Part shown: positions 1,524-30,023 of the stretch, piece by piece | How positions within the stretch are numbered: the stretch's first letter is position 1 | Layout of the letters: every line of letters starts with the position of its first letter | NCBI GenBank assembly: GCA_025210155.1 | Contig: JAOASE010000002.1 | Span: 2,853-66,852 of the forward strand | Length of the DNA stretch: 64,000 bases | Direction: 5' to 3' | DNA from: Alphaproteobacteria bacterium | Lineage (GTDB): Bacteria; Pseudomonadota; Alphaproteobacteria; Rs-D84; CASDRH01 | Program-made: the position numbers and the translations under genes | Notes under the pieces: model-generated | The model's database searches: none | What the model was told of the DNA's origin: nothing | What the model saw: only the letters and a program-made list of their open reading frames with translations

Positions 1524-3812
1524 TTAGAATTTGTTGTTTTTAGGGAAGCCGTAGGGAACCATTTTTCCTACCTTAGCTCTATTATTTTTCCACATTTCAA
1601 CGTCTGCTGGTTTTACGGAATATGTTTTGCTGCCGCTTGCCCATGAGAAACCTTCAAGTGATTTGAATGAGATTACATCGCTAAGATGAGTTTTCTTTTC
1701 TTTATACTTTTGAAGGATTACACCTTTACCTTTTCCAAGTGTTGGTAATTCATTAATATCGAATATTAACAACATTCTATTATTACCTGTTATGGCGATA
1801 AGGTCATCATCTTTTTCTATGATTTTAGCAACTACAGGAGTATCTCCAGTTTTTAATCCCATAACAGTTTTACCGTTTTTAGTTGAGGCAATAGTTTCTG
1901 CTATTGGGGTTTTGAAACCGTTTCCACTTTTTGAAGCTAGAAGGATTTCTTTTTCTTCATCTGTCTTGTCGTTGTAATCGAAGATTTGAACTATTTTTGC
2001 AGTCTTTAATTCTATCATTAGGTTGATAGGTTCGCCGAAACCTCTTCCTCTTGGAAGTTTTGCAGGGTCGATTGTATAGAACCTTCCATTGTCAGCAAAT
2101 ATTAATAGTTTATGTGCTGAATTGGAGTGTATTGCAAAGCCAAGTTTGTCACCGTCTTTGAATGCGAAATCTTGAGTTAGGTCTACATGTCCTTTAAGGG
2201 CTTTGATCCAACCTTTTTCAGAAATGATTATTGAAAGAGGTTCTCTAACTACGAAGTCAGCTTCGTTGTAAGATAGAGTTTCAGCTTCGTTATCAATTTT
2301 AGTTTTTCTTTTACCAACTTTAGTTTTCTTACCGAATTTAACTTTAGTTTCTTCTATGTCAGTTGCAACTGTTTGAAGTTGTAATTCTTCTGAATCTAAG
2401 ATTTCTTTAAGGTGATCTCTTTCAGCTTCTAACATTTTTTTATTTTCTAGAATTTCGTTTTCTTCAAGTTTTCTTAACTGTCTTAATTTCATGTTTAAGA
2501 TAGCTTCTGCTTGAACGTCGCTTAGACTAAATCTATCCATTAATAATGGTTTTGGTTCATCATTGTTTCTGATGATGTTGATGATTTCGTCTAGGTTTAA
2601 GTACGCGATTAATAAACCGTTTAAGATTTCTAATCTGTGCTCAATTTTATCTAGCTTATATTTACTACGACGAACTAGAACTACTTGTTGATGATCGATA
2701 AATTCTTGTAGGAATTCTCTTAGAGGCATAACTCTTGGAACACCTTTTGAATCTAGTGCGTTCATGTTGTAGTTGAATTTGATTTCAAAGTCAGTGTTTT
2801 GTAATAGTTGAGCCATAAGTTTTTCAGCTTCGATGATTCTGCTCTTTGGTTCGATTATGATACGAACGTTTTCGTCAGATTCGTCTCTGATGTCAGCAAC
2901 TGTGTTTAGTTTTCCGTTGTTGATAAGCTCAGCTGTTTTTTCTATTAAACGAGATTTTTGAACTTGGTATGGGATTTCAGTGATAGCTATTTGATAAGCG
3001 CCTCTACCTAGTTCTTCTTTTTCCCATTTACATCTTAATTTAATAGCGCCTTTACCTTCTTCGTAAATTCTTGAAATAGTGTCGTGGTTTTCGCAAACTA
3101 TTCCGCCAGTTGGGAAGTCAGGTCCTTTGATGTATTTTGTTAATTGTTTTGTTGTAGCTTCTTTATGTTTGATTAGGTAAAGTAAAGCTGCACAAACTTC
3201 GTCTACGTTGTGAGGAGGGATATTTGTTGCCATACCTACGGCGATTCCCATTGCTCCGTTTGCTAGAAGGTTAGGGAAGCAACCTGGCATAACTGAAGGC
3301 TCGTTGTGTTCGCCATCGTAAGTTGGTACGAAATCAACTGCGTCTTCGTCTAGACCTTCCATAAGTTTGATTGCAATTTCTGTTAGACGGGCTTCTGTAT
3401 ATCTCATTGCCGCTGGGCTATCACCGTCTACGTTACCGAAGTTTCCTTGACCATCTACTAGTGGAAAACGTACTGAGAAGTCTTGTGCTAAACGAACCAT
3501 AGAGTCATATACTGCTGTGTCACCGTGTGGGTGATATTTACCGATTACGTCGCCGACGACTCTGGCAGATTTTTTAAAGCCGGATTGAGGTGCAAGTCTT
3601 AATGCACGCATTGCGAATAGTAGTCGTCTATGTACTGGTTTAAGACCGTCTCTCACGTCCGGTAGGGAACGAGATACGATTGTAGACATAGCGTACTCTA
3701 AGTATTTTTCCGATAGGGCTTCAGCCAGTTGGATTGTTTTTATTTCATTTATCATTCTTTTAAACTTCCTTTTTCTGTTTCTGATTTTAGAACTTAGAAC
3801 AGAAAAAATCAA
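1524..3812 (-). CDS. parC: type IIA topoisomerase subunit A, most likely topoisomerase IV subunit A (ParC). GyrA is not excluded.
   Basis: Catalytic-region motifs [16 protein letters not shown] and YHPHGD are present. The 762 aa length fits ParC better than alphaproteobacterial GyrA. A minus-strand terminator hairpin plus T-tract lies at 1494-1522. The true start may be the internal Met near 3755. Confidence 0.8.
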
Positions 3813-4033
3813 GTTTATTTTTCCTGTGTCTTTTAACCCAATTTAAGCCAAAGTATCGATTCTTAATTTTCAGTCATGTATTATTTATACACTCCTAAAA
3901 ATTAAAATCTACTTTGACTTTCTTGAATTAAAATACTTTGGAAAAAATTTCTTATGAGAATTTGTTCTTGTTGATTTATTTTAATATAGTTGTTATCAAT
4001 TAATTTTTAAATTTATAGTAATGGAGGTTATGA

Positions 4034-5443
4034 ATGGATAATTTTAAATTAATAAAAGATATTGAAAGTAATTCTTATGATTATAAAGATACTTTAAAAG
4101 TTTCACCTATAGTTGTTAAAATTGCTGAAATAATTAAAAACTCTGAGAATGGAGATGTATTTGGTATAAATGCAGATTTTGGTGTTGGTAAAACAGTGTT
4201 TTGTCATAGGTTAAAGAAGTATTTAGAAAGTGATTTTGATAATATTATATATTTAGATATCTGGAAAGATGATCTTTCTGATAATCCTTTAATGCCAATA
4301 ATATATTCTATTACTAATGAACTTAGCACTAAAAATGATATAGTAAATAAAAAGTTAAAATCTATAGGGTGTGCTTTAGCTAAAACTGCTTTAAAAGCTG
4401 GTATTGGATATATAGAACAACAAGCTAATTTAAAAATAAAAGATACTTTTGATAAGGAATTTAATATAGATGGAGGAATTGATTCAATTATAAAAAGTTT
4501 GGAAAATGATGATGAATTTAAAAAATCTGAATACTTTAGAAATAAAAAGTTAAAAGATGAATTTAAAAAGACTTTGAGTGATTTTTTGAAAGACAAAAGT
4601 ATTTTACTTATTGTTGATGAGTTAGACAGATGTAGACCTGATTTTGCAGTTCATACTTTAGAAATTATAAAGCATTTTTTTGATGTTAATAATTTAAAAT
4701 TTGTCATATCTTCAAATAAAAATCAGTTACAAAGTGCTGTTAAATGTATTTATGGAGTAGAAGATTTTGATGGATATTATAGAAGGTTTGTTGATATAAA
4801 TTTCAATTTACCAAAAGTGGATTTTCAAAATTATTCAAATTATCTTTTTAATGATATCGGTTTAAAGTATGATAAGAAAAGAGTTTTAACTTTTTCTTTT
4901 AAGGATCAATTTAATTTAAAAAATATTGATGATGTTTTATCGGATACATTTTCTTATTATTCAAATTTATTTAATTTTTCTGCTAGAATGCAAAAACAAA
5001 TTTTTAATAAATTACAAAGTTTTGTTAATTCAGATAGTGAATTTGTTTTTATTCCTGAAATACATTTGGTATTATTATTAATATATGAATATAATTTGCA
5101 AATGTTTTTGGATTTAAAAGAAGATCCATCTCTTATTAATAGGCTTTTAGATAGTAAGATATCTGAAAGGTATGGTTATTGGAGAAATGGACTTTCAACT
5201 ATAGAGAGAAAAAATATTATTTATCTGTTTCAGTTTAGAGAATTAAGGAAAAATTTATCGGAATGGTATTTAATTAGTAACTTGATTAAACCTGTCGATT
5301 CTAAATCTGCTTTAACAAATATAAATTTATATCAGAATATTTTTTCAGATAAAAATATAAATTATTCAGATGATAAATTTTTTGAAATTTTAAGAAATAG
5401 TTTTGACTCTATAGAGTTTATAGAAAAAGTATTGGAAAATTAA
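4034..5443 (+). CDS. KAP-family P-loop NTPase
   Basis: Walker A FGVGKT and the KAP-signature Walker B LLIVDELDRCRPD are both present. 469 aa. The upstream intergenic region is AT-rich, and a terminator follows at 5474-5498. Confidence 0.7.
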   Translation: MDNFKLIKDIESNSYDYKDTLKVSPIVVKIAEIIKNSENGDVFGINADFGVGKTVFCHRLKKYLESDFDNIIYLDIWKDDLSDNPLMPIIYSITNELSTKNDIVNKKLKSIGCALAKTALKAGIGYIEQQANLKIKDTFDKEFNIDGGIDSIIKSLENDDEFKKSEYFRNKKLKDEFKKTLSDFLKDKSILLIVDELDRCRPDFAVHTLEIIKHFFDVNNLKFVISSNKNQLQSAVKCIYGVEDFDGYYRRFVDINFNLPKVDFQNYSNYLFNDIGLKYDKKRVLTFSFKDQFNLKNIDDVLSDTFSYYSNLFNFSARMQKQIFNKLQSFVNSDSEFVFIPEIHLVLLLIYEYNLQMFLDLKEDPSLINRLLDSKISERYGYWRNGLSTIERKNIIYLFQFRELRKNLSEWYLISNLIKPVDSKSALTNINLYQNIFSDKNINYSDDKFFEILRNSFDSIEFIEKVLEN

Positions 5444-5473
5444 AAATTTAAAAAAATAATTCTTGATTAAATG

Positions 5474-5498
5474 GTGTGCCGATGGTACACTATTTTTA
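5474..5498 (+). terminator. intrinsic terminator after the KAP NTPase
   Basis: GTGTGCC gat GGTACAC followed by a T-rich run. Confidence 0.45.
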
Positions 5499-5499
5499 T

Positions 5500-5712
5500 A
5501 TCGGGTGATTATCTGATTGGGGCTTCAAAACCTCTCGTAAAGCGGTCTGCTAGCAGAACCTGAAAAGGTCAGATCGAAAACAAAAAACTGCCTTCTTTGT
5601 CTTTAGGGACTGGGAGGCAGGGTTATGTCCAGGCTTCGGCTAAAAGCCCGCGCTGTCTTTACGCAGTTTTGAACTCCCAGTCCGTTTGTTTTTACTCTCG
5701 GGCTTTTTTATT
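5500..5712 (+). ncRNA. candidate structured RNA, either an sRNA or a cis-regulatory leader; class unknown
   Basis: A GC-rich island sits in AT-rich intergenic DNA. A 10-bp long-range helix pairs GGACTGGGAG (about 5608) with CTCCCAGTCC (about 5677). There is a cUUCGg tetraloop (GGCTTCGGCT). It ends in a GC stem plus T6 run at about 5697-5710, and a short ORF with an SD follows immediately. No long ORF gives a sensible protein. Confidence 0.3.
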
Positions 5713-5728
5713 TTATTGGAGTTTTTTT

Positions 5729-5890
5729 ATGAGAATGATTTTAGTTTGGTTTTTAGTTATACTTTTGGTGATATTTTATCCTATTTATGATTTTCTTCGA
5801 GCTCTAATTCGTTGGGATTGGGCATCTCTAAAGGATAATGATGAGGAGTGGTTTTTTTGTGAAGAAGATCACTGTGATGATGGGGATTAA
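5729..5890 (+). CDS. possible small membrane protein (53 aa, one TM helix, acidic Cys/His-rich tail)
   Basis: ATG lies 9 nt after GGAG. The hydrophobic core is LVWFLVILLVIFYPIY. It sits directly downstream of the candidate RNA and terminator. Speculative. Confidence 0.2.
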   Translation: MRMILVWFLVILLVIFYPIYDFLRALIRWDWASLKDNDEEWFFCEEDHCDDGD

Positions 5891-5936
5891 ATAAAGGCCT
5901 CTATAATTAGAAGCCTTGGGTTTTTAAATTTTTTTA

Positions 5937-6332
5937 TTATACGGCTGTCGCCACGGGTCTGCACACTTGTAGTTCGTCACCGGGTATAAAAGGAACCCAG
6001 CATCTATTGTATGTTTTTACAATAGTGTCTACATTGAAAGTGTCTAATACTTCTTTGGCAATCATGATGTCTTTTTCATCGTGTATGTTAGATGAAAGAG
6101 TGTCTTTTGAAAAGACATCGAGTTCGTTGCTTACCAGAAAAGTTTTGCTGCTAACGTTTTCTCTTTTGCCTTCGGGAGACTCAGCGTTGAATGCGTAGAA
6201 GCCATAAGCTTTGTTTGATAAAGCTATTTGAATGATAGATTCTAGAACAGTGTCTTGTTCTATCTTTTCGATGGTTTCATGATTTTGCTTACATGAGCAT
6301 GAACATTTTAATAATACAAGGTAGAGATTCAT
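5937..6332 (-). CDS. hypothetical protein (131 aa), paralog of the 8223..8630 product
   Basis: Shares the motifs IIQ-A-xN-A-GF..F.A..P, SKT-FLV and VKxYN..W..FI with the other paralog. Confidence 0.4.
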   Translation of the reverse strand: MNLYLVLLKCSCSCKQNHETIEKIEQDTVLESIIQIALSNKAYGFYAFNAESPEGKRENVSSKTFLVSNELDVFSKDTLSSNIHDEKDIMIAKEVLDTFNVDTIVKTYNRCWVPFIPGDELQVCRPVATAV

Positions 6333-6527
6333 AAACTTTGATTTAATTAGGTTTAACTTATTTATCTAATTTAAGTTAAGGGAATTGTTTGGTCATGTCA
6401 AGGGAAAATGAAATTTTAAGTTGTGAAAATATGGCTAATTATTTTTGTGAATTAGCTTGATAAGAAGGGATTGCTATATTATAATAATATGACTATTTAA
6501 GATGAGAATTTTTAGGAGGAATTTTAA

Positions 6528-7361
6528 ATGAAAAAGTGTTTTCATTCTAGGCATAAAAATAATTTTGGTGATGTGTTAAACAAGCACATGTTTGATGCTC
6601 TTTTTGATGATTGGAAAAGGGTGAAACCATGGAAGGCTAATTACTTTATGATAGGTAGTATTATTGATAAAGTTTTGCAGGATGGGACTAAATTTCATTT
6701 TAAAAATTTGTTTAAGAAAAAAGATGATTTGACGTTGCTTGGAACTGGGTTTATTCAGCCATCTCCTTTTAAAAAAGATTTGATTCATAAAAATATTATA
6801 CCTGTGGCTGTTAGAGGTGAAACTACTAAGGCTAGACTTGAAAGTATGGGCGTTGATTGTAGTGAAACTGTTCTTGGTGACTGGGGTTTGATAGCTGATA
6901 AGTTTGTGGATTTTGAAAAGAAAGAAAAGAAATATGATGTTGGAATTATTCCTCATTATGTGGATAAGGAGCATCCTACTTTAAAACGATTCGACGGGGA
7001 TAATAGGGTGAAAATCCTTGATATTAGCCGAAATCCTAAAGATTTTATAGAGGGCGTTTGTGAGTGTGAAACGGTGTTGTCTAGTGCTATGCATGGTTTG
7101 ATTATTGCAGATGCATTGAAGATTCCTAATCTCGCCTTGAGACTTTCTGATTTGGTTGTTGGTGGTGAGTATAAATTTAATGATTATTATTCTGTTTTTG
7201 GAAAAAAGGTTAAGTTTTTATATCCAAAAGATTTAGATGAAATTGATGATTTGAAAAAATATATTAGTGAGAATTATGAGCTTTCTAATGATGAAATTGA
7301 TAGGGTTAAAAAGAATATTTATGATTGCTTTTTGAAGGTTAAAAAAGTTAATAAAAAATAG
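6528..7361 (+). CDS. polysaccharide pyruvyl transferase family protein (putative)
   Basis: The N-terminal NNFGDVL motif, VRGETTKARLESMGV and SSAMHGLIIADALKIP match family hallmarks as I recall them. Confidence 0.4.
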   Translation: MKKCFHSRHKNNFGDVLNKHMFDALFDDWKRVKPWKANYFMIGSIIDKVLQDGTKFHFKNLFKKKDDLTLLGTGFIQPSPFKKDLIHKNIIPVAVRGETTKARLESMGVDCSETVLGDWGLIADKFVDFEKKEKKYDVGIIPHYVDKEHPTLKRFDGDNRVKILDISRNPKDFIEGVCECETVLSSAMHGLIIADALKIPNLALRLSDLVVGGEYKFNDYYSVFGKKVKFLYPKDLDEIDDLKKYISENYELSNDEIDRVKKNIYDCFLKVKKVNKK

Positions 7362-7373
7362 GTGGGTTTCAGT

Positions 7374-8156
7374 ATGACTAAAAAGAAGAAAATTATATTG
7401 TCGTTGACTAGTTATGGGAAGCGAGTTGATACAGTTTATTTGACTATTCAGACTTTGTTGAAGCAGACAAAAAAAGCTGACAAAATCGTTCTTTGGTTGG
7501 CTGAAGATGAGTTCAGTTTGGAGACTATTCCTGCGAGTTTAAAATCGCTTGTTGATGAAGGTAAGTTGGAAGTTGGTTTTTGTAAGGATATAAGGTCGTA
7601 TAAAAAGTTAGTTCCTAGTTTGAAGAAATATCCGAATGATATAATAATCACTTTTGATGATGATATTTTTTATAAAAATGATATCGTTGAAAAATTATAT
7701 AATGCTTATTTAAAAGAACCGGAGTTGTTACATTGTATGAGAGGTCGTATGATGAAATATAATTCTAAGGGAGAATTGTTGTCTTATAAAAAGTGGAGGA
7801 AATTTCCTTTATACTTTAAAGCGGATATAAATATCCTTCCTACTACTGGTGGTGGAACATTATTTGTTAAAGAGTATTTTGATGAAGATGTATTTAGAGA
7901 TGATGTTTTTATGAAATTGGCTCCTCATGCAGACGATGTTTGGTTTAAAGCTATGACTATGAAGAATGGTGTGAAGTGTAAGCTTATTAAGAGAAGGTTT
8001 TGGCATTCTACTAAGTTGGATAATATTGATGGAACACAAGAAGGTGGTTTATGGGAATTAAATAGAAATATTTATGAGGGGAATAATCCGCAGATAAAAG
8101 CTGTTTTTGAAAAGTATGGAATTTGTAAGATGGTAGATATTCCTAAAAAGAAATAA
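7374..8156 (+). CDS. putative glycosyltransferase (capsule/LOS-type), 261 aa
   Basis: N-terminal LTSYGKR, then DDD and acidic motifs. It overlaps the upstream gene's stop, so the two are probably co-transcribed. A terminator lies at 8164-8190. Confidence 0.35.
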   Translation: MTKKKKIILSLTSYGKRVDTVYLTIQTLLKQTKKADKIVLWLAEDEFSLETIPASLKSLVDEGKLEVGFCKDIRSYKKLVPSLKKYPNDIIITFDDDIFYKNDIVEKLYNAYLKEPELLHCMRGRMMKYNSKGELLSYKKWRKFPLYFKADINILPTTGGGTLFVKEYFDEDVFRDDVFMKLAPHADDVWFKAMTMKNGVKCKLIKRRFWHSTKLDNIDGTQEGGLWELNRNIYEGNNPQIKAVFEKYGICKMVDIPKKK

Positions 8157-8163
8157 AAATAAA

Positions 8164-8190
8164 AGCCTCATAAGTTGGAGGCTTTTTTTG
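8164..8190 (+). terminator. intrinsic terminator; bidirectional context
   Basis: AGCCTC ataagttgg GAGGCT followed by T7. Confidence 0.55.
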
Positions 8191-8222
8191 AAAAAATAAA
8201 TTGTTTAATTTTGGCAGTTTAC

Positions 8223-8630
8223 TTACTGTTCTTTAATCTCCATCAATTGGTCGTTATCTTTTATGAAGTTGGTCCAGAAGCCGTTGTAGCATTTTACAAC
8301 ATATTCCATATTTTCCATTTCTTTCATTAGGTTTATTAGACCGGTGATAGTGTCTTTTTCGATCTTGGACTTAAACTCAGTGATTTTTTCTAGTTTTTTA
8401 AGGGTGAAAAGTTCACATTCATTTTCTTTAACAAGGAAGATTGTTTTTGATTTATTTTCTTGTGTGCTATTTGGGCCATTTGCTTCAAATGTTTTAAATC
8501 CAAAGGCATTATTTTTAATGGCTTTTTGGATGATCTCATCCATATATAAATTGTCACTAATTTCTTCTGTTTCATAATAGATGGGTGAAACTGAAGGAAC
8601 AAAAATAAAGTACTCTACGTATTTTTTCAT
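8223..8630 (-). CDS. hypothetical protein (135 aa), paralog of the 5937..6332 product
   Basis: See the paralog motifs listed under 5937..6332. Confidence 0.4.
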   Translation of the reverse strand: MKKYVEYFIFVPSVSPIYYETEEISDNLYMDEIIQKAIKNNAFGFKTFEANGPNSTQENKSKTIFLVKENECELFTLKKLEKITEFKSKIEKDTITGLINLMKEMENMEYVVKCYNGFWTNFIKDNDQLMEIKEQ

Positions 8631-8748
8631 TTCTTTTTTATTTAAAGGTTACTTAGTCTTTAAGATATATTATGTTTGATTTTTATCAAGCTAAAAATTT
8701 TTCAAATGAGTTTGTATAAAAAAGCCTCCCAGATGGGAGGTTTATTTT

Positions 8749-9666
8749 TTAATATGATCCACTTAAGATTGGTGGGATGATTTGTTTTTTTCTACTCATT
8801 ACACCAGGAAGCCATTTTGATACATTGTTTTCAATCTTAGTATCGAAGGCTTTATCTATACGGAACATGTCATTAGATACTACTAGCAAGTAACTGCTTT
8901 GCTTTATGATATCTGTGATTATCATTATAACAGTTTCGTATCCGTCATCATTTTTAATTCGGTTCATTTCAGAAATGATTTCTTCTTGTTTAGAAGGGGA
9001 AATGTGATCAGCATCGATAAGTTCTATTTGTCCTATGCCGAACATATTTTGACCAACAGCAACGTTTTTGAAGTCTCTTCTGATTAATCTTTCTGCAGGA
9101 AGATTAACGTCAGATTTAACTTTGAACATTTCCATACCAACTTCTTCTACGTTTATTTGAGCGATTTTGTTTAGTTCTTCTACTGCAATCTTGTCTGCTT
9201 CAGTAGTTGTAGGAGATTTGAACATAACTGTATCGTTTAATATTGTAGCAATAAGGGCTCCGGCTATGTTTTTAGGAATTTCAAGATTGTGATGATTATA
9301 TAATTCTTGTATGATTGTTCCACAACATCCAACAGGTCTGATCCACATTTCTAAAGGAGCAGAAGTTCTAAGGCTTCCTAAGTTATGGTGGTCTAATACG
9401 AAAACAACTTTTGCTTCTTCAATATCTTGAGGAAGTTGTTCGTTTGTTGTAGTGTCTACAAGGGCTACTTTTTCGCCTTTAACTTCTTCTATTAATTCTG
9501 GAGCTTCAAGAGAGAATTTTTCTAATATCCATGTACTATCGTTTGTTAAGTCTCCTTGAGTGCAAGCAGTTGAAGCTCTACCTGTTTTGTTTAGCACATC
9601 TGAAACTGCTATTGATGATATAGTGCTATCTGCATCTGGGTTTTTGTGGCCGAATACTTTTATCAC
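8749..9666 (-). CDS. ppaC: manganese-dependent inorganic pyrophosphatase, family II (DHH/DHHA2)
   Basis: N-terminal FGHKNPDADS (DHH motif I). The 305 aa length fits. A minus-strand terminator CCTCCC atct GGGAGG plus T-tract lies at about 8720-8748. Confidence 0.75.
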   Translation of the reverse strand: MIKVFGHKNPDADSTISSIAVSDVLNKTGRASTACTQGDLTNDSTWILEKFSLEAPELIEEVKGEKVALVDTTTNEQLPQDIEEAKVVFVLDHHNLGSLRTSAPLEMWIRPVGCCGTIIQELYNHHNLEIPKNIAGALIATILNDTVMFKSPTTTEADKIAVEELNKIAQINVEEVGMEMFKVKSDVNLPAERLIRRDFKNVAVGQNMFGIGQIELIDADHISPSKQEEIISEMNRIKNDDGYETVIMIITDIIKQSSYLLVVSNDMFRIDKAFDTKIENNVSKWLPGVMSRKKQIIPPILSGSY

Positions 9667-9843
9667 TTTTTAACCTTTCTAAATTTTTTCTCTGATTTAG
9701 GTCCATAATCCTAATAATTTGGAATTGTAGTTTAATATGACTGATTCTAAATTGCAAGCGAGAATTTAAAAGGGATAGGTAAAAATTTGTTTCAACTATT
9801 TCTGGTTTTTGTTAGATTTTTTCTTATATTCTTTTTCTATTGA

Positions 9844-10890
<1,047 letters not shown>

Positions 10891-11003: not shown

Positions 11004-11942
11004 ATGAAAAATAGAAAAAGTATTAAATTATCTCTTATAGTTCCATTTTATAATGAAGAAAAAATGGTTGATATTTTTTTTGAAACAGTAATTCCTATTG
11101 TTAAAAAAATCTCAAATGATTATGAAATAATTTGTGTTAATGATAGTTTTGCAGATACTACTTTTGAGTTGTTAAAAAAGTGGCACTTTATAAATAATAA
11201 AATAAAGGTTTTAACATTTTCTAGGAATTTTGGAAAAGAAGCCGCTATGACTGCTGGTGTAGATTATTGCACTGGTGATGCGGCGGTTTTTATTGATGCT
11301 GATTTGCAAGACCCCCCTCAAGAATTATCAAAAATGGTTGAAAAATGGAAAGAGGGGTTTGATGTTGTTTTGATGAAAAGATTAAGAAGGAATAAAGATT
11401 CTTTTTTTAAGAGGGTAACAGCCTATTGTTTTTATAGGATAATAAATTTCATGAGTCATAAAATGGTTGAAAAAGATGTTAGTGATTTTAGACTTTTAGA
11501 TAGAAAGGTTTTAGATGTTTTAAAGTGTTTAAAGGAAAAAAATCGTTTTATGAAGGGGTTGATGTCTTGGTCAGGATTTAAGAAATGTGATCTTTATTTT
11601 GAGAGACCCGCTAGAATTAAGGGAAAAACTAAATTTAATTGCTCAAAGATGATTCGACTGGCTTTTGATGGTATTTTTTCGTTTTCTATTATGCCAATAA
11701 GGTTATTTACTTTGTTAGGAATTCTTTTGTCTATTATATCTTTTATCTGGATTTTTTATATTATATATCAAAAACTATATTTAGGAGATGTTGTAAGTGG
11801 TTGGGCTTCAATAATGAGTATAATTTTGTTTTTTAATGGGGTTATAATGATAGGTTTAGGTGTTCTTGGAGAATATGTAGGTCGAGTTTATAATGAGGTT
11901 AAAGATAGACCTATTTATGTAGTGGATCAAGAGTTGTTTTAG
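11004..11942 (+). CDS. GT2 polyprenyl-phosphate glycosyltransferase (ArnC/GtrB/DPM1-like)
   Basis: N-terminal LSLIVPFYNEE, a DAD motif (FIDADLQDPP), and two C-terminal TM helices. Confidence 0.75.
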   Translation: MKNRKSIKLSLIVPFYNEEKMVDIFFETVIPIVKKISNDYEIICVNDSFADTTFELLKKWHFINNKIKVLTFSRNFGKEAAMTAGVDYCTGDAAVFIDADLQDPPQELSKMVEKWKEGFDVVLMKRLRRNKDSFFKRVTAYCFYRIINFMSHKMVEKDVSDFRLLDRKVLDVLKCLKEKNRFMKGLMSWSGFKKCDLYFERPARIKGKTKFNCSKMIRLAFDGIFSFSIMPIRLFTLLGILLSIISFIWIFYIIYQKLYLGDVVSGWASIMSIILFFNGVIMIGLGVLGEYVGRVYNEVKDRPIYVVDQELF

Positions 11943-12356
11943 ATGGTAAATTTATTTTTTAAATTATCAGAAAAGTTAAGATATTTAATGATAGGTGGCT
12001 TAAATACTATTATTGGATATTTAATATTTATTTCATTAACATTAATATTAGAAGGTAAAATTAATTATATTTTTATTGTTCTTTTAAATTATGTTTTTGG
12101 ATTTAATGTTAGTTTTTTTAATTTTAAATATTTTGTTTTTAAATCTAAAAAGAGAATAAGGGATGAATATTTTAAAACTATAAATAGTTATATTTTATTA
12201 TTTTTTATTAATTCATTTTTAATGATAATTTTTCAAGAAATTTTGAAAGTAGGTTTGATTTTGTCTCAAGGTATTATAATTATATTTATGACAATAATAA
12301 CTTATTTAATACATAAAAATTATTCTTTTAAAAAGGAGAGCACTGTTGAAAAATAA
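11943..12356 (+). CDS. GtrA-like small membrane flippase-family protein
   Basis: 137 aa with four TM helices. The start codon abuts the GT2 stop, the classic GtrB-GtrA order. Confidence 0.5.
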   Translation: MVNLFFKLSEKLRYLMIGGLNTIIGYLIFISLTLILEGKINYIFIVLLNYVFGFNVSFFNFKYFVFKSKKRIRDEYFKTINSYILLFFINSFLMIIFQEILKVGLILSQGIIIIFMTIITYLIHKNYSFKKESTVEK

Positions 12357-13892
12357 CATGAAAATATTAATAATTTTATTAGGTGTTTCTTTAAGAATTT
12401 TTGCAGGATATAATAAACAATATTATCACACGGATGATATATTTTCTTTTGAAATAATTAATGATAATAGTTGGGCTGAAGAAAGAATTAATGAAGATAA
12501 TTGGAATAAAATTATAGATGGTAATATTTTAAAATCGGATGTTGAAATTTCAAAAGAAGAGATGTTTAATTTTAATTTTTTAGAAGTTGTAGGAAATAAG
12601 GAGCCTCATCCACCATTTTATTATATAGTTTTGCATATTGTTCAATCTTTATTTGTAGATGGAAAATTTTCTAAATGGCCAGGAATTATTTTGAATATAT
12701 TTATTTATATTCTATCATCTGTTTTTTTATATAAACTTTCTAAATTTTTTATTAAGAAAGAATTATTATCATTATTCACTGTATTTTTATTTGCGATAAA
12801 TACATAGGCTATTTCAAGTACAGTTTTTATAAGAATGTATGAGATGTTTATTCTGTTTACTATTTTAATATTTTATCTATTTATTAAATTTATAGAGCAG
12901 AACCATGTTGATAAAAAATTGTTGGTAAAAATTGGTATAACTTCTATTCTGGGAGTTATGACGCATTATCATTTTGTTTTTTTTATATTACCTTTATTTT
13001 TAGTTTCTATTATATATCTATATAAAAAGGGAGATTTGTTGAAGATAAAATCTTTGTTTGTTTCTATGGTTTTATCTGCTTCTTTATTTTTTATTTTATG
13101 GCCTTATGCTTGTCATCAAATATTTGGAAGTTATCATGGTATGGTTTTGCTTGGAGGGGTTTAATGTTAAATTTTATTCAATTTAATTTGAGTTATTTTC
13201 TTTTAATTGTTGTTTTGATTGTTTTTTATGGGAGAGTAAATACCAAAAGTAATAAGGGGTTTAATATATATTTTTTATTTTATTCTGTAGTTTTTTCTTT
13301 TCTTTTGGTTGAATTCTGCAGAACTTGGAATTCTCCTAGATATTTATATTTTATAATACCTTTGATATTTTTATTTTTAATATCTTTTGTTGATAGGTTT
13401 GTTAAAAAGAAAGTTTTTATTTATTTATCTACTCTGTTATTGTTAATAGTTAATTTTATTGTTTTTGGGGTGTTTAAAGTGAACTATTTGAATTATGATC
13501 AACCGAGTTCTCCTACCTTTACTGAAGATAGGAGTGTTGTTTTTGAATTTGTGAAAGATTTTGATCAAAATAAAAGAGATATTTCTACTGTCGTAGTTTT
13601 AGAAGAAAATTGGAAGAAGTATAAATTTGATGATAAAAAAGTATTTGATAGATCTTATAAAGACATAACAGTTTCTAAATTAATGCCTTTGTTAGTGAAT
13701 AGAGAAAAATTATATATGGTTGAAAAAGGTGATTTGTCTGATATTAAATGGGATGGCATTTTAAAAGATTTCGGAAATCCTAATGAGATTTATATTTTAT
13801 CTAAGAATAAAATTCTTTATTTAGACTCTTTATATAAAGAGAGAAAATGTTATTTTCTATTTCATAGAAATATATGCTTTTATAAAAAATAA
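12346..13892 (+). pseudogene. GT-C membrane glycosyltransferase (ArnT/GtrC/PMT-like), disrupted by one in-frame TAG and one frameshift
   Basis: Three consecutive ORFs (12346-12807, 12835-13164, 13098-13892) add up to a protein of about 526 aa with roughly 10 TM helices and a soluble C-terminal domain. The first two are in the same frame, separated only by the TAG at 12805-12807. The third overlaps in another frame across the T-run at 13086-13097. Confidence 0.45.
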
Positions 13893-14862: not shown

Positions 14863-14995
14863 TTACTTTATCTGATTGTGAGAAATAATTTTCTCATTTA
14901 CTGCATGTAAACTTCGAAATCATTTTCACTTCCATCTAAATCAAAATTACCAAAACGTTGTGTTGAGATATTTTTATAAGGGGATAATCATGGAT
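14863..14995 (+). repeat. dispersed palindromic intergenic repeat of the GGGGATTTTACTT family
   Basis: Shares modules with copies at about 26650, 30040, 37312, 56200 and 60125. Confidence 0.6.
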
Positions 14996-15664
14996 GGAGA
15001 AAAACTATGTATTCTTTGCAATAAGAATTTAGCGGAGACTAGAGAGCACAAAATATTAGCTGCTTTTATTAGGGATTTAACAAAAGAAGAAGATACTAAA
15101 GAAGTTTTTGTTCATAAAACAAAAAATGTATTTGACGGTGTTTATGAAGATTTTAAGTTTTCTAAAAATGATAAAGGTGGTGCTTTAAAGTTCAAAGACA
15201 AGCAATTATGTTTTAAGTGTAATAATGAACGCAGTCAAAGTATAGATAAGGCATTTATAAAATTTATTAATAATGCAGAAAAGATATCAAAAAGTTTTGA
15301 TGAAAGACAAATAACTTTAGTTAAAAATAACTTTATTCCAATAAAAAATTTAGAATCTTTAAATCAAGTTATTAAATATTTAATTAAAATTATAATTTGT
15401 ATGATTGATGAAGCAAAACTTGATATTCCAAAAGAATTAATAGGTGATGATTTTTTTTTACAAGATATAAATTTAAATAAGGTAAAATTTAAAATTAAAT
15501 TGTTAGATTTTATAACAGTTAATGAAAAAAATACATTGATACCAACCAATGGTGACTTATTGATAGAAAGTGGAAAGAATATTTTTCTGAAAAATTATAG
15601 AATAAATGGTGTTAATATCTATTTTAAATATTGCTTAGATGAAAAAATTGATATTAAAATATAA
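14960..15664 (+). CDS. hypothetical protein with two CxxC pairs (CILCN...EH...CFKCNN); possibly a diverged HNH-like zinc-finger nuclease
   Basis: Motifs seen directly; the spacing is longer than a canonical HNH. A bidirectional terminator lies at 15669-15695. Confidence 0.35.
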   Translation: MLRYFYKGIIMDGEKLCILCNKNLAETREHKILAAFIRDLTKEEDTKEVFVHKTKNVFDGVYEDFKFSKNDKGGALKFKDKQLCFKCNNERSQSIDKAFIKFINNAEKISKSFDERQITLVKNNFIPIKNLESLNQVIKYLIKIIICMIDEAKLDIPKELIGDDFFLQDINLNKVKFKIKLLDFITVNEKNTLIPTNGDLLIESGKNIFLKNYRINGVNIYFKYCLDEKIDIKI

Positions 15665-27895: not shown

Positions 27896-28232
27896 GGGTG
27901 GGAAATAATTTGTTATCGGTATAATTTTTATTTGATTATTTTAAATTCATTTATTATAATTGTTTTATCGTAACGTTGATCTGCTAACAACAGGGAGTTG
28001 AAAGAAGAACAGTAGAAATACTTATTAGAACTTTCCGGGTAAGCCCGTTATAGCTACGATTGATAAGGTCGTTTCAAATTAAGTCAAATTTAAGGGTGGC
28101 ACCGCGTTTATCGCCCCTTATTCAAAAAATATAATTAAATTTTGTTTTGTGATTTTAGAGATCGCCATTTTTGAGTCTTTAATTTTATGAAGCAATTAAT
28201 ATTGTTTTGAAGACAAAAAGGAAAAGTAAAAA

Positions 28233-30023
28233 ATGACAATAATTAAAAATAAATATAGAACGCATTCTTGTGCTGAATTGAATGAACAAGCAGTTGGTGA
28301 AACTGTAACTTTATCTGGTTGGATTCATAAAATGAGAGACCATGGTGGATTGATTTTCGTTGATTTAAGAGATTATTATGGAATTACTCAGGTGGTTTTT
28401 GATGCTTCTGTTTCTGATGATCTTAAGAAGATTGAAGAGAATAGAGTTGAAAGTGTTATCACTATTGAAGGTGAAGTTGTTGCTAGAACTGAAGAAACAA
28501 TTAACCCTGATTTATCTACTGGTAAAATCGAAGTTGCTGCTAAGTCGTTTAAAGTTTTAAGTAATGCAGATGTGTTACCTATACTTGTTGCTTCAGATGA
28601 AAAGTTTGGTGAAGATTTAAGACTTAAATATAGATATATAGATTTGAGAAGAGAGAAGTTGAAGAAGAATATTCAAATGAGAATGGATGTTTTTAAAGAA
28701 ATTAGAAGTATTATGAATGGAAAAGGATTTAATGAAATTCAAACACCTGTTTTGACTGCGTCGTCTCCAGAAGGTGCAAGAGATTTCTTAGTTCCATCTC
28801 GTGTTCATCATGGCAAATTTTATGCATTACCACAATCTCCTCAAATTTTTAAAGAGCTTTCTATGGTTGCTGGTTTTGATAGATATTTCCAATTAGCTCC
28901 ATGTTTTAGAGATGAGGATTTAAGATCAGATAGATTGTTAGAATTTTATCAATTGGATATGGAAATGTCTTTTGTAGAAAGAGAAGATGTTATGGAAACT
29001 ATGCAAGATAATATGATGAAAGTTTTCAATAAATTTAAAGGTGATAAAATTATAGATGAGAATATTCCTCATATTACTTATCAAGAAGCTATGGAAACTT
29101 ATGGTATTGATAGACCTGATTTGAGAAATCCTCTTGTTATTAAAGAAGTTGGTGAAGTTTTTGCAGGTTCAGATTTTGGTTTGTTTGCAAGCTTAGTAGC
29201 TAAGGGAAATAGTGTTAAAGCTGTTAGAACTCCTGGTACTGCTGGTCAACCTAGATCTTGGTATGATAAGTTAAATGATTGGGCTAGAAGTGAAGGTGCT
29301 GGTGGTCTTGGTTATATTGTGTTTAACGAAGATGGCACAACTAAAGGACCTATAGCTAAGAATTTAGATGAAGCTAGAATTAATCAAATTAGAGAAATTT
29401 GTGGTGTTGAAAATGGCGATTCTGTTTTCTTCTGTTGTGATAAATTAGAAGAAGCTCAAAAGTTTGCTGGAAAGGTTAGAACTAAATTGGGTACAGACTT
29501 AGAGCTTATTAATAAAAATGAATTTAAGTTCTGTTGGGTAATTGATTTTCCTTTCTTTGAAAAACATGAAGAGACTGGTGAATTAGCAATGGGTCATAAT
29601 CCATTCTCTCAACCTAGAGGTGGAATGGAAGCTTTAAATAATGCTGAAAATCCATTCGACATTTTATCAGAACAATATGACTTCATTTGTAACGGTTATG
29701 AACTTGGTGGTGGATCTATAAGACATGAAACTTTAGATACTTTAGTTAAATGTTTTGATATGGTTGGCTATGGTGAAGAAGTAGTTAAAGAAAAGTTTGG
29801 TTCTATGTATGATGCTTATCATTACGGTGTTCCTCCTCATGGTGGAATTGCGATGGGTATGGAAAGAATTATTATGTTGCTTTGTGATGAGCCTAATCTT
29901 CGTGAGGTAGTTCCTTTCCCTGCTAATGGTAAAGGACAAGATACTATGATGGGTTCTCCTTCTGAAGTTTCTGAACAACAGTTGAGAGAGGCTCATATTA
30001 AGGTTAGACCAACTATAAAGTAA
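28233..30023 (+). CDS. aspS: aspartyl-tRNA synthetase
   Basis: 596 aa with the class II motifs FRDEDLR, GGGSIR and GLGMERI-like (GIAMGMERI). Confidence 0.9.
   Translation: MTIIKNKYRTHSCAELNEQAVGETVTLSGWIHKMRDHGGLIFVDLRDYYGITQVVFDASVSDDLKKIEENRVESVITIEGEVVARTEETINPDLSTGKIEVAAKSFKVLSNADVLPILVASDEKFGEDLRLKYRYIDLRREKLKKNIQMRMDVFKEIRSIMNGKGFNEIQTPVLTASSPEGARDFLVPSRVHHGKFYALPQSPQIFKELSMVAGFDRYFQLAPCFRDEDLRSDRLLEFYQLDMEMSFVEREDVMETMQDNMMKVFNKFKGDKIIDENIPHITYQEAMETYGIDRPDLRNPLVIKEVGEVFAGSDFGLFASLVAKGNSVKAVRTPGTAGQPRSWYDKLNDWARSEGAGGLGYIVFNEDGTTKGPIAKNLDEARINQIREICGVENGDSVFFCCDKLEEAQKFAGKVRTKLGTDLELINKNEFKFCWVIDFPFFEKHEETGELAMGHNPFSQPRGGMEALNNAENPFDILSEQYDFICNGYELGGGSIRHETLDTLVKCFDMVGYGEEVVKEKFGSMYDAYHYGVPPHGGIAMGMERIIMLLCDEPNLREVVPFPANGKGQDTMMGSPSEVSEQQLREAHIKVRPTIK

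Follow-up and report, generated by a model that had tools for sequence, protein, structure and literature searches.

Background

The small RNA sRNA-Xcc1 (RF02221) is carried by integron cassettes, prophages and plasmids of Xanthomonas and other proteobacteria. C4 of phages P1/P7 and IsrK of Gifsy-1 are leader-encoded RNAs that control downstream icd/ant or antirepressor genes; RNase P substrates, as known from C4 processing, carry ACCA behind the closing stem. In Xanthomonas, sRNA-Xcc1 has been mapped as an 88-nucleotide transcript (PMC2996969), and in integron cassettes of that genus it lies upstream of symE (bioRxiv 10.1101/2025.06.18.660453). In APSE phages it precedes an ORF6N gene (bioRxiv 10.1101/2020.03.17.996009), and a Xylella prophage carries C4, IsrK and sRNA-Xcc1 in tandem (table in PMC12189769). 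Among protein systems, the PDC defence candidates were derived from the context of restriction-modification neighborhoods (bioRxiv 10.1101/2024.01.29.577857).

Here we describe a locus in which a variant of sRNA-Xcc1 sits beside a gene of the PDC type and a small glycan operon. The island that holds them is ordinary, being a flexible island of a known type; among its parts, only the RNA is unusual.

A variable segment between parC and ppaC

The window, by which we mean the entire 64,000-nucleotide stretch analyzed, comes from an uncultivated alphaproteobacterium with a small, AT-rich genome (approximately 30% GC, contig of approximately 1 Mb). Two conserved flanks, parC (1524-3755, minus strand, starting at ATG 3755 and not at TTG 3812) and ppaC (8749-9666, minus strand, followed by obg), enclose a variable segment at 3814-8715. 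The comparison set consisted of one close relative (L007) and one short strain-variant contig from a sister metagenome (L009). In blastn searches against the window, L007 aligned with approximately 80.6% identity over 3519-3813 and 8716-9995, with no alignable sequence in between. Homology thus breaks off after 3813 and picks up again at 8716, almost exactly where the initial annotation had drawn the island limits. The flanks are syntenic (86% identity for ppaC, 92% for the parC N-terminus and 94% for obg), whereas the interior is non-orthologous: 4.9 kb in the window versus 2.28 kb at the same site in L007, which has solely a 365-amino-acid pyruvyltransferase and a GT8 enzyme there. The KAP gene, the RNA and the paralogs described below are all absent from the L007 interval. 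Because a glycan slot at the same position is common to both genomes, the content of the island appears to have been replaced, and not simply inserted.

The strain-variant contig L009 differs from the window by a single mismatch in 418 nucleotides over 5608-6025, is approximately 25% diverged over 5498-5607, and is unrelated to the left of 5498, where another minus-strand gene takes the place of the KAP gene. Logan contigs from three samples end at 5604-5634, the same junction as this break in identity. Neither an integrase nor a transposase nor flanking repeats were found in or at the interval. Composition is shifted in two directions: GC is low in the KAP gene (0.221 versus 0.30 for the window, z -2.1), and GC3 is raised in the four-gene glycan block, where the 131- and 135-amino-acid paralogs have the window maximum (z 3.05 and 2.70). 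Low GC like that of the KAP gene also occurs elsewhere in the window, for example at 11943-13892, and composition alone is therefore weak evidence. Terminator-like hairpins are enriched in the interval (6, versus 2.5 ± 1.6 in shuffles). The separate terminators noted earlier were recovered as hairpins at 5894-5917, 8161-8186 and 8722-8743, the last of these lying within the ppaC terminator (8720-8748), and, by eye, behind the KAP gene.

A structured RNA related to sRNA-Xcc1

A structured RNA of approximately 215 nucleotides occupies 5498-5712 on the plus strand, as judged by fold z-score, compensatory pairs and a covariance model. The GC-rich, RNA-like element reported here before is borne out by a GC content of approximately 0.46, compared to 0.30 for the window, and a fold z-score of -3.7 on the plus strand versus -2.3 on the minus strand. 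Its sigma-70-type promoter (5463-5491, plus strand; TTGATT-17 nt-TACACT, read from the sequence) overlaps the KAP terminator hairpin at 5474-5490, and L009 keeps it as TTGATA-17-TATACT despite diverged surroundings.

The RNA opens with a 5' domain of hairpins, among them a helix capped by a GNRA loop. An A-rich linker leads to helix 5, followed by a three-way junction and by a terminator-like hairpin that ends in a U-run. In helix 5 the anti-strand CUGCCUUCU pairs with GGGAGGCAG. The sRNA-Xcc1-like junction (5608-5690, plus strand) is closed by the stem GACUGGGAG / CUCCCAGUC, and the terminator-like hairpin (5677-5716, plus strand) reads AGUCCG...CGGGCU followed by U6AU4 in the predicted fold (helix 183-188/203-208, A3 numbering). 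The 5' arm of that hairpin overlaps the 3' strand of the junction closing stem, as read from the sequence.

The Rfam model RF02221 matches the junction with 33.5 bits against a cut-off of 53 (E 4.8e-4 locally, 0.055 for the whole window). A model built from a Pseudanabaena element alone matches the 64 kb at the junction site and nowhere else (43.4 bits, E 3.6e-8), and the covariance model of the full-length RNA aligns over its entire length with the Pseudanabaena plasmid L017 at 2906-3107 (31.3 bits, E 5e-8). Between the window and L009 there are four compensatory pairs, with divergence starting exactly 5' of the junction. Of the cells in the three-sequence alignment, 97.5% are paired, and both sides have changed in 13 pairs, compared to at most one in slid controls; the covariation as a whole draws on three or four model-aligned sequences. 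The RNA is clearly homologous to the Pseudanabaena plasmid element; it is a new variant within the known sRNA-Xcc1-related family, with an Rfam match below threshold. The Pseudanabaena plasmid is conjugative, and its element adjoins parDE and lies 45 nucleotides upstream of a small open reading frame (ORF) for a soluble 70-amino-acid protein. The U-run is missing after the 3' hairpin of this copy, which must therefore be a leader there.

A 53-codon gene and a possible RNA switch

Overlooked by the initial annotation, a 53-codon ORF (5729-5890, plus strand) follows the RNA, with a GGAG ribosome-binding site at 5718-5721, 7 nucleotides before the ATG. It is called by both JGI and NCBI (N4A44_00130). 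The predicted peptide has an N-terminal transmembrane helix (residues 1-19, KD 2.47) and an acidic, Cys-containing tail, with 12 acidic and 4 basic residues in total. No family match was found in profile searches, including Pfam, PADLOC, NCBIfam and phrog. As its sole homolog is the L009 version, which differs by one residue, the coding status of the ORF rests on the ribosome-binding site, the hydrophobic helix and the two gene callers. A bidirectional terminator (5894-5917; minus-strand terminator call, plus-strand T-run read from the sequence) separates it from the 131-amino-acid gene.

In the predicted ensembles of all three full-length RNA sequences, helix 5 is favored and the pair probability of the junction closing stem is approximately 0. 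The GGAG site of L009 is paired with the CUCC of the junction 3' strand in the predicted ensemble (P at least 0.95); in the fold predicted for the window RNA, the CUCC does not hold the ribosome-binding site. From these conserved, mutually exclusive helices we infer an RNA switch. A single transcription unit from the conserved sigma-70 promoter would give the RNA of approximately 215 nucleotides and then, past a leaky terminator, the peptide. In the primary transcript, the upstream anti-strand would pair with the G-rich 5' strand of the junction to form helix 5, freeing the C-rich 3' strand for the terminator hairpin or for covering the GGAG site, such that the default state would be OFF. If processing or a bound factor removed or displaced the 5' domain, the junction would be able to close, which would give an RNA like sRNA-Xcc1, allow read-through to the peptide gene, or both.

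The KAP NTPase, the glycan operon and the ORFan paralogs

To the left of the RNA lies the gene for a 469-amino-acid P-loop NTPase (4034-5443, plus strand) containing LLIVDELDRC, with a terminator seen by eye on the plus strand (5474-5490 plus T-run). Its earlier assignment to the KAP family holds: it matches KAP_NTPase (Pfam PF07693) with E 2.7e-33 (115.9 bits, cut-off 20) and, over nearly its full length, the PADLOC model PDC-S20 with E 1.4e-64. PADLOC also gives weaker matches, over the NTPase domain, to PifA (E 8e-17) and to QatA (E 1e-12), and phrog_8614 is matched with E 2.8e-49. The protein is thus of the KAP family and not a housekeeping NTPase. Inserted transmembrane helices, raised earlier for this protein, are not present, since no 19-residue window has a KD hydropathy above 1.6. 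The best homologs are 30-37% identical and scattered across unrelated phyla; the closest, P0124, is placed between hsdS and hsdR in a type I restriction-modification operon. No known defence gene adjoins the KAP gene here in the PADLOC results. Judged by these matches, the protein is a soluble, PDC-S20-like defence candidate. Given its family and its homologs embedded in restriction systems, the stand-alone soluble KAP NTPase would most likely act as a single-gene, NTP-driven sensor or effector of infection.

The glycan operon is preceded by a sigma-70-like promoter (6457-6485, plus strand; TTGATA-17-TATAAT) that, with 11/12 matches, is the best of the interval. Its first gene encodes a polysaccharide pyruvyl transferase family protein of 277 amino acids (6528-7361, plus strand; PF04230, E 3.3e-11, 44.1 bits, cut-off 25.3), with 25% partial identity to the 365-amino-acid enzyme of L007. 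The second encodes a GT-A-type glycosyltransferase of 260 amino acids with an FDDD motif (7374-8156, plus strand), whose start is best placed at ATG 7374 and not at GTG 7362. It has a weak GT2 match (16.8 bits, under cut-off) and weak similarity to KfiA (PDB 5z8b, E 1.3e-3), and similarity to the L007 GT8 enzyme was not detected. The translational coupling proposed earlier stands as a tight operon, in which the AGGUGG ribosome-binding site of the glycosyltransferase overlaps the upstream stop codon, but not as a strict overlap, because a gap of 12 nucleotides separates the genes. The operon has a common terminator with the 135-amino-acid gene (8161-8186, terminator scan) that resembles the ppaC terminator at 8720-8748 in sequence. 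Together, the two enzymes would decorate a surface polysaccharide with a sugar and with a pyruvate ketal.

Two ORFan proteins flank the operon, paralog A of 131 amino acids (5937-6332, minus strand) and paralog B of 135 amino acids (8223-8630, minus strand). They are paralogous, as the initial annotation held (32% identity, E 3e-13), and no other homolog was found in 5.8e9 proteins or 1.84e9 representatives. For paralog A, AF2 gives a pLDDT of 79, and neither PDB nor BFVD yielded a matching fold. JGI names paralog B 'LptF permease', which is not credible for a protein of only 135 amino acids that lacks a hydrophobic segment. Nothing other than position supports the idea that the pair forms a duplicated module boundary; given their shared high GC3, they would travel with the glycan block.

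Alternative explanations

All features described in the initial annotation were found in place, and its reading as accessory DNA is supported by synteny, composition and the identity of the KAP protein. We refine it to a mosaic with replaced content. The island consists of at least three modules and is not a single insert; 3814-8715 is probably a replacement hot spot, a flexible islet made up as a three-module mosaic of the KAP gene, the RNA with its small ORF, and the glycan operon. All three modules, each separately transcribed, would deal with exposure to phages or surface-recognizing enemies. If the interval were instead old, vertically inherited lineage-specific DNA with no horizontal acquisition, from which L007 had reductively lost the KAP gene, the RNA and the paralogs, the lack of mobility genes and att-like repeats would fit, as would the low-GC genes elsewhere in the window and the small AT-rich genome, deletion being common in such genomes. 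However, loss alone cannot explain the content of L007, since its glycan genes are not orthologs of those in the window. Almost identical strains carry different genes on the left side of the RNA, where identity breaks off sharply, the closest relative of the RNA is on a cyanobacterial plasmid, the KAP homologs are distant and phylogenetically scattered, and paralog GC3 is approximately 3 standard deviations over the window mean. We therefore consider purely vertical descent very improbable.

The RNA and the 53-codon ORF might together form a type I toxin-antitoxin-like module for addiction or abortive infection in the style of hok/sok. The structured leader would silence a membrane-toxin mRNA under control of an antisense transcript or the processed junction, and the module would stabilize neighboring accessory genes or kill infected cells. 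The peptide is hydrophobic and single-pass, and its ORF lies behind a structured leader of approximately 230 nucleotides with alternative helices; in cassettes of Xanthomonas, the toxin gene symE lies directly behind sRNA-Xcc1 (bioRxiv 10.1101/2025.06.18.660453), and the Pseudanabaena copy adjoins parDE on a conjugative plasmid. Against this, no convincing antisense promoter/terminator pair was found at the locus, and G-U pairs of helix 5 become A-C mismatches on the minus strand, which folds less well. Known type I toxin tails are mostly basic or polar, unlike the acidic tail of this peptide, which also lacks a family match. The ORF behind the Pseudanabaena element encodes a soluble protein, and the RNA is therefore not tied to membrane peptides. 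We judge such a module unlikely, and we are equally doubtful that the RNA is a stand-alone, trans-acting sRNA gene with the ORF unrelated or not a gene. The conserved promoter and the hairpin with U-run ahead of the ORF would suit an independent sRNA, as would the 88-nucleotide Xanthomonas transcript (PMC2996969). Yet the arrangement of this RNA with a small ORF 16-45 nucleotides behind it is also seen in an unrelated replicon and in the contexts published for Xanthomonas and APSE. The plasmid copy, lacking a U-run, must be a leader there, and the GGAG site 7 nucleotides before the ATG is a good one.

Comparison with known systems

PDC-S20, PifA and QatA are KAP-type NTPases from anti-phage systems, some proven and others candidates, PDC-S20 itself being a candidate only. 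The window protein resembles them in its near full-length PDC-S20 match and in having its closest homolog inside a type I restriction-modification operon. It differs in standing alone between housekeeping genes without a transmembrane insert, and it is far under the NCBIfam cut-off for QatA (41 versus 600 bits) and lacks the QatB-D partners. The glycan operon resembles surface-glycan cassettes (PF04230 enzymes such as CsaB, GT-A enzymes such as KfiA) in pairing a pyruvyltransferase with a glycosyltransferase in a tight operon, but the two enzymes are alone in the interval, without flippase, polymerase or export genes; similarity to CsaB is negligible (E 0.064), and flanking ORFan paralogs are unseen in known glycan loci. 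As in hypervariable glycan loci, the corresponding slot of a close relative is filled by a pair that is functionally analogous but not orthologous, which indicates diversifying surface-glycan turnover. O-antigen and capsule loci typically show gene turnover of this sort.

Similar to hok/sok, a gene for a single-pass membrane peptide of approximately 50 amino acids lies behind a long leader whose alternative folds can hide the ribosome-binding site. Unlike hok/sok, an antisense RNA gene was not found at the window locus, the peptide tail is strongly acidic, and profile searches gave no sequence similarity to any toxin family. With C4 and IsrK the element has in common a structured leader RNA co-transcribed with the following gene, and the Pseudanabaena homolog has both a weak C4 match at the same place (20.5 bits) and an ACCA tail after the closing stem. 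The window element itself has no C4 or IsrK match in an Rfam search of the window and carries CGUUUG instead of ACCA, and no complementary target boxes near the downstream start were identified, in a search that was uninformative.

The likeness to sRNA-Xcc1 covers the three-way junction itself, in which two hairpins sit on a G-rich/C-rich closing stem of 9 bp, a conserved CUUU loop and UUUGA linker, and a place in variable or mobile DNA with a small gene directly downstream. The window RNA scores below the family cut-off, as given above, resides on an alphaproteobacterial chromosome, and ends in a U-rich terminator, in contrast to the C-rich tail of the consensus. It is further set apart by a conserved, structured 5' extension of approximately 110 nucleotides outside the Rfam model, which holds the anti-strand that competes with the junction closing stem.

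Gene turnover between parC and ppaC

Between parC (1524-3755, minus strand, with its true start at ATG 3755) and ppaC (8749-9666, minus strand), the window carries a variable interval at 3814-8715. The window itself belongs to a 1.05-Mb JGI contig, labelled 'MAG: Alphaproteobacteria bacterium' at NCBI, and identical copies are present in several sister samples. Sampling of the lineage is thin: by ppaC, the best relative is 86% identical and the next 53%. That best relative, a 3.9-kb locus (L007), contains obg, ppaC and the start of parC in the window's order, and the synteny comparison proposed in the initial annotation finds collinear flanks around a non-orthologous interior. Homology by blastn ends at window position 3813 and resumes at 8716; the 2.28-kb interior of L007 codes for a pyruvyltransferase of 365 aa and a GT8 enzyme, one with a 25% partial identity to the window's corresponding pair and the other with none, and it lacks the KAP gene, the structured RNA and the paralogous small proteins of the window. 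Farther parC/ppaC loci (51-58% identity, GC 65% or 36%) have no neighbours in common with the window. The same was true of parC-based scans of GTDB and metagenomes, which returned only 51-58%-identical relatives of 65% GC, and a 52%-identical ppaC locus is non-syntenic.

Given the non-orthologous pair in L007 and the lack of shared neighbours farther out, the interval appears to be a hot spot for gene replacement in which a 'glycan slot' is conserved. The variable content expected of an accessory insert was borne out, but a single simple insertion was not, since L007 fills the same slot with a different glycan pair. An integrase-mediated genomic island or integron cassette is not supported: gene calling gave no integrase or other recombinase in the interval, and no attC or att site or direct repeat was found at its borders. 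A phage-type integrase does lie about 3 kb outside the window start, separated from the interval by housekeeping genes. It belongs to a stretch approximately 3-6 kb upstream of window position 1 on the same contig (L002 1-3094) that also encodes a 577-aa RVT_1 reverse transcriptase, an HTH_17 protein and two unknown ORFs, and that constitutes a separate mobile element.

All of the ORFs and domains initially described are present in the window, and the reading built on them is supported, with refinements. The inventory overlooked one gene, a 53-codon plus-strand ORF at 5729-5890 that is called by both JGI and NCBI. The terminators proposed between units are also apparent, with six terminator-like hairpins dividing the units against 2.5 +/- 1.6 in shuffled sequence.

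A KAP NTPase of a candidate defense class

The plus-strand gene at 4034-5443 encodes a 469-aa protein containing LLIVDELDRC, and its earlier assignment to the KAP family is confirmed by a PF07693 match above the curated cut-off (115.9 bits versus 20; residues 25-329 aligned to profile positions 3-288 of 293). Both Walker motifs can be read from the translation, Walker A as FGVGKT at residues 49-54 and Walker B as LLIVDELD at 188-195. KAP NTPase domains have inserted transmembrane helices in many members, though not all. The suggested check for such helices gave none here, as the Kyte-Doolittle maximum is 1.51 per 19-residue window, where a value above 1.6 was taken to indicate a membrane segment.

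In PADLOC, the protein matches PDC-S20 almost end to end (E 1.4e-64), with residues 17-392 aligned to positions 17-391 of the 464-position profile, and three more PDC-S20 models match as well. PifA and QatA are weak matches, and a PHROG of unknown function is a strong one; the genes neighbouring KAP gave zero PADLOC matches. PDC systems are candidates nominated by 'guilt by embedding', the surrounding loci being BREX, DISARM and type I R-M (bioRxiv 10.1101/2024.01.29.577857). Homologs of 30-37% identity are found in Clostridium, Enterobacter, Psychrobacter, Verrucomicrobia and an archaeon. The closest of these (P0124, 35% identity) is located between hsdS and hsdR, in the order hsdM-hsdS-x-KAP-hsdR, and another (P0134) is not embedded in this way, lying alone among housekeeping genes like the gene in the window. 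By homology, the KAP gene is a new member of candidate class PDC-S20, with a putative role in phage defense.

A glycan operon between paralogous ORFans

Downstream of the 53-codon ORF, a minus-strand ORF of 131 aa (5937-6332) is followed by a plus-strand pyruvyltransferase gene (6528-7361), a 260-aa glycosyltransferase gene starting at ATG 7374, with a ribosome-binding site, AGGUGG, that overlaps the stop codon of the preceding gene, and a minus-strand ORF of 135 aa (8223-8630). The pyruvyltransferase clearly belongs to PF04230, scoring 44.1 bits where the cut-off is 25.3 and aligning through residues 12-205 to profile positions 1-277 of 280. The glycosyltransferase is GT-A-like, with an FDDD motif, a GT2 match of 16.8 bits that falls below the cut-off of 23.3, and a weak similarity of residues 7-123 to KfiA (5z8b; E 1.3e-3). 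The best promoter of the interval sits upstream of this operon. A shift in base composition or codon usage, which had been suggested as a check, is evident: no other part of the interval is as GC-poor as the KAP gene (0.221, z -2.1), and GC3 is raised in each of the four genes between 5937 and 8630, the two paralogs holding the top two values among 66 ORFs. The raised GC3 suggests a common foreign origin for these four genes, distinct from that of KAP.

The 131- and 135-aa proteins were correctly recognized as paralogs (32% identity, E 3e-13). Searching for a family was unproductive: neither has a match in Pfam, NCBIfam, PHROGs or PADLOC, and no homolog was found in 5.8e9 proteins by word-indexed search or in 1.84e9 representatives by full HMMER. 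An AF2 model is reasonably confident (pLDDT 79), and Foldseek against PDB and BFVD returned nothing significant. The fold of the two proteins is thereby predicted with confidence, while these searches found no relative for either. JGI names the 135-aa ORF an 'LptF permease'; its product is soluble and has no hydrophobic segment or family match, and we regard the name as an annotation error. The terminators flanking this gene (8153-8212 and 8694-8753) are 60-nt imperfect inverted copies, 70% complementary, with the core AAAAGCCUC...GAGGCUUUU; they may represent terminator-sequence convergence or a trace of the gene's insertion.

Just past obg, at 11004-13892 on the plus strand, there is a second surface-glycan cluster, comprising GtrA, a GtrB-like GT2 and two or three membrane proteins, of which one weakly matches PMT_2. 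The cluster is extremely GC-poor (0.155-0.236, z down to -3.7). With it included, everything from 4 to 14 kb seems given over to modification of envelope glycans. Further along, a 224-aa plus-strand ORF (14990-15664, GC 0.218) with a weak match to the HNH_5 endonuclease family (E 6e-4) lies between murB and the trigger-factor gene.

A structured RNA related to sRNA-Xcc1

The GC-rich, non-coding stretch directly after the KAP gene, noted earlier as RNA-like, is predicted to be a structured RNA of approximately 215 nt (5498-5712, plus strand). The fold of 5500-5712 is 3.7 sd better than shuffles on the plus strand, against 2.3 sd on the minus strand, and compensatory changes are seen in a strain variant. 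This variant, a contig from a sister metagenome (L009), was reached through a one-residue variant of the 53-aa protein. It differs from the window by one mismatch in the 418 nt of 5608-6025, is about 25% diverged across 5498-5607, and is unalignable left of 5498, where a minus-strand gene with no family, defense or structure match stands in the place of KAP. Despite these diverged surroundings, the promoter TTGATT-17-TACACT (5463-5491) is kept as TTGATA-17-TATACT. Among roughly 28 substitutions in the 5' 110 nt of the RNA, four predicted pairs have changed on both sides, as in the 5' hairpin AUCGGGU/AUCUGAU, which becomes AUCAAGU/GCUUGAU in L009. The 5'/3' end pairing of the window's MFE fold is not preserved in L009 and was discarded.

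No Rfam family matches the RNA at its gathering score. The 83 nt at 5608-5690 align full-length to positions 1-87 of sRNA-Xcc1 (RF02221) with 33.5 bits, below the gathering score of 53 (E 4.8e-4 in a 561-nt search, 0.055 window-wide). This segment has a 9-bp closing stem, two hairpins, a CUUU loop and a UUUGA linker, and when isolated (97 nt) it folds as a three-way junction at -33.4 kcal/mol. It is situated in the strain-variable interval, 39 nt upstream of the 53-codon ORF, and its first base is also the point at which identity between the window and L009 breaks. Sister samples assembled independently break at two points: Logan contigs from three runs (L004, L005 and L006) start or end at 5604-5634, the junction start, which we infer to be an assembly fork at the same junction, and a JGI contig (L003) breaks at 5897, the terminator after the 53-codon ORF.

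A weak blastn match, the only one to plasmids, pointed to a homolog on the Pseudanabaena plasmid pPSE7367.01, where the site scores 37.5 bits as sRNA-Xcc1 and is located 45 nt upstream of a 70-codon ORF. A second, diverged copy lies on the opposite strand upstream of an HTH gene, and changes in the stems are compensated in the Pseudanabaena copies. The two elements at this locus (L017 2627-3345; Pseudanabaena sp. PCC 7367, NC_019690) point apart, each approximately 45 nt upstream of a gene, the HTH regulator on one side and the 70-aa ORF followed by parDE on the other, with a Tn3 transposase nearby. Such an arrangement is reminiscent of a divergent regulatory switch region.

With a covariance model of the plasmid element by itself, 5608-5690 is the sole match in 64 kb (43.4 bits; E roughly 3.6e-8, against E 1.6 for the next match). 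Conversely, a full-length model of the window and L009 sequences can be aligned with the plasmid across all 216 positions with 31.3 bits, taking in a GGG...AAACC hairpin and a AAAGCGGUC...GAUCGA helix with a GNRA cap. Across the three aligned sequences, pairing holds in 97.5% of cells and 13 pairs have changed on both sides, versus at most one in slid controls, counts that are supportive but not conclusive because the alignment is model-fitted.

Other RNA classes were considered. 6S, tmRNA, SRP and RNase P have no Rfam match at gathering score or E <= 10, and ARAGORN likewise predicts no tmRNA. The phage-related C4 (RF01695) and IsrK (RF01394) families have no match at E <= 10 in window 5400-5960, a C4 match of 20.5 bits being limited to the plasmid homolog. 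Additional copies were not found by blastn at word size 7, by running the full-length covariance model over the window and each retrieved locus, by four patterns in viral contigs (0 each), or by blastn against phages and E. coli, which gave nothing meaningful. A 20-mer scan of metagenome contigs also gave 0, the source samples evidently being outside that collection, and the eight loci returned by a gapped pattern were all eliminated by the covariance model and Rfam. Elsewhere in the window, a T-box leader-like element (27967-28121, plus strand; RF00230 41.1 bits versus a cut-off of 93, E 1.1e-5) is directly upstream of aspS (28233-30023; tRNA-synt_2, GAD and OB domains). A T-box before an aminoacyl-tRNA synthetase gene would be unusual for an alphaproteobacterium.

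A possible leader switch

Upstream of the junction, an anti-strand (CUGCCUUCU in the window, CUUUCCCAGG in the plasmid) is predicted to pair with the G-rich 5' strand of the junction, forming helix 5. The closing stem of the junction pairs the same G-rich strand with CUCCCAGUC, making the two helices, both of them conserved, mutually exclusive. In the predicted ensembles of all three full-length sequences, helix 5 has P ~0.96 and the closing stem ~0. Forcing the junction fold costs 9-15 kcal/mol in the full-length RNA, a comparison of the MFE and 'junction closed' energies only, and the 3' part folds as the junction when isolated. The 3' strand of the junction overlaps the 5' arm of a terminator-like hairpin, AGUCCG...CGGGCU-U6. 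In L009 it is predicted to pair with the GGAG site of the small ORF (P at least 0.95), whereas in the window's own predicted fold this site is free of it.

Based on the exclusion of the two helices and the predicted folds, we propose a default-OFF leader that could be opened by processing or by a bound factor, with the 88-nt sRNA-Xcc1-type species as its product. The gene it might control has a GGAG site 7 nt upstream of its start and encodes 53 residues, in which an N-terminal helix of strong hydrophobicity is followed by an acidic tail with two cysteines; there is no family match and no plasmid homolog. Its product is like type I toxins (hok/sok-like) in size and topology, but no antisense gene could be defined for it, and G-U pairs favor the plus strand.

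More tentatively, and with considerable doubt, the ~215-nt RNA could be an undescribed, cross-phylum class of leader switch in mobile DNA, of which the 88-nt 'sRNA-Xcc1' would be merely the 3' module. A conserved 5' sensor domain and helix 5 would keep the junction open until release, via processing or a bound factor, gates a downstream small gene. The gated genes would be small and toxic or regulatory: a membrane peptide here, and symE, ORF6N and a 70-aa protein elsewhere. On this view, the sharp break with L009 at the first base of the junction would be a boundary at which modules recombine or the RNA is processed.

Comparison with known systems

The island overall is of a known kind, a flexible islet with a candidate defense gene and a swappable surface-glycan cassette, and is notable mainly for such turnover in a poorly sampled lineage with a contig of ~1 Mb. 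Its useful part is the RNA, which connects the chromosome of an alphaproteobacterium, a conjugative plasmid from a cyanobacterium and the sRNA-Xcc1 family of Xanthomonas and prophages. The recurrence of the element upstream of small genes suggests that sRNA-Xcc1 is the product of a cis-acting leader, instead of or besides being a free-standing virulence sRNA. Should that prove right, matches to this Rfam family would have to be read differently, and the leader would offer a concrete candidate switch. The window RNA has the architecture, conserved loops and genomic habit of sRNA-Xcc1 in common but scores below the family threshold, and is a new variant, showing that this family can bear a conserved 5' domain and a competing helix.
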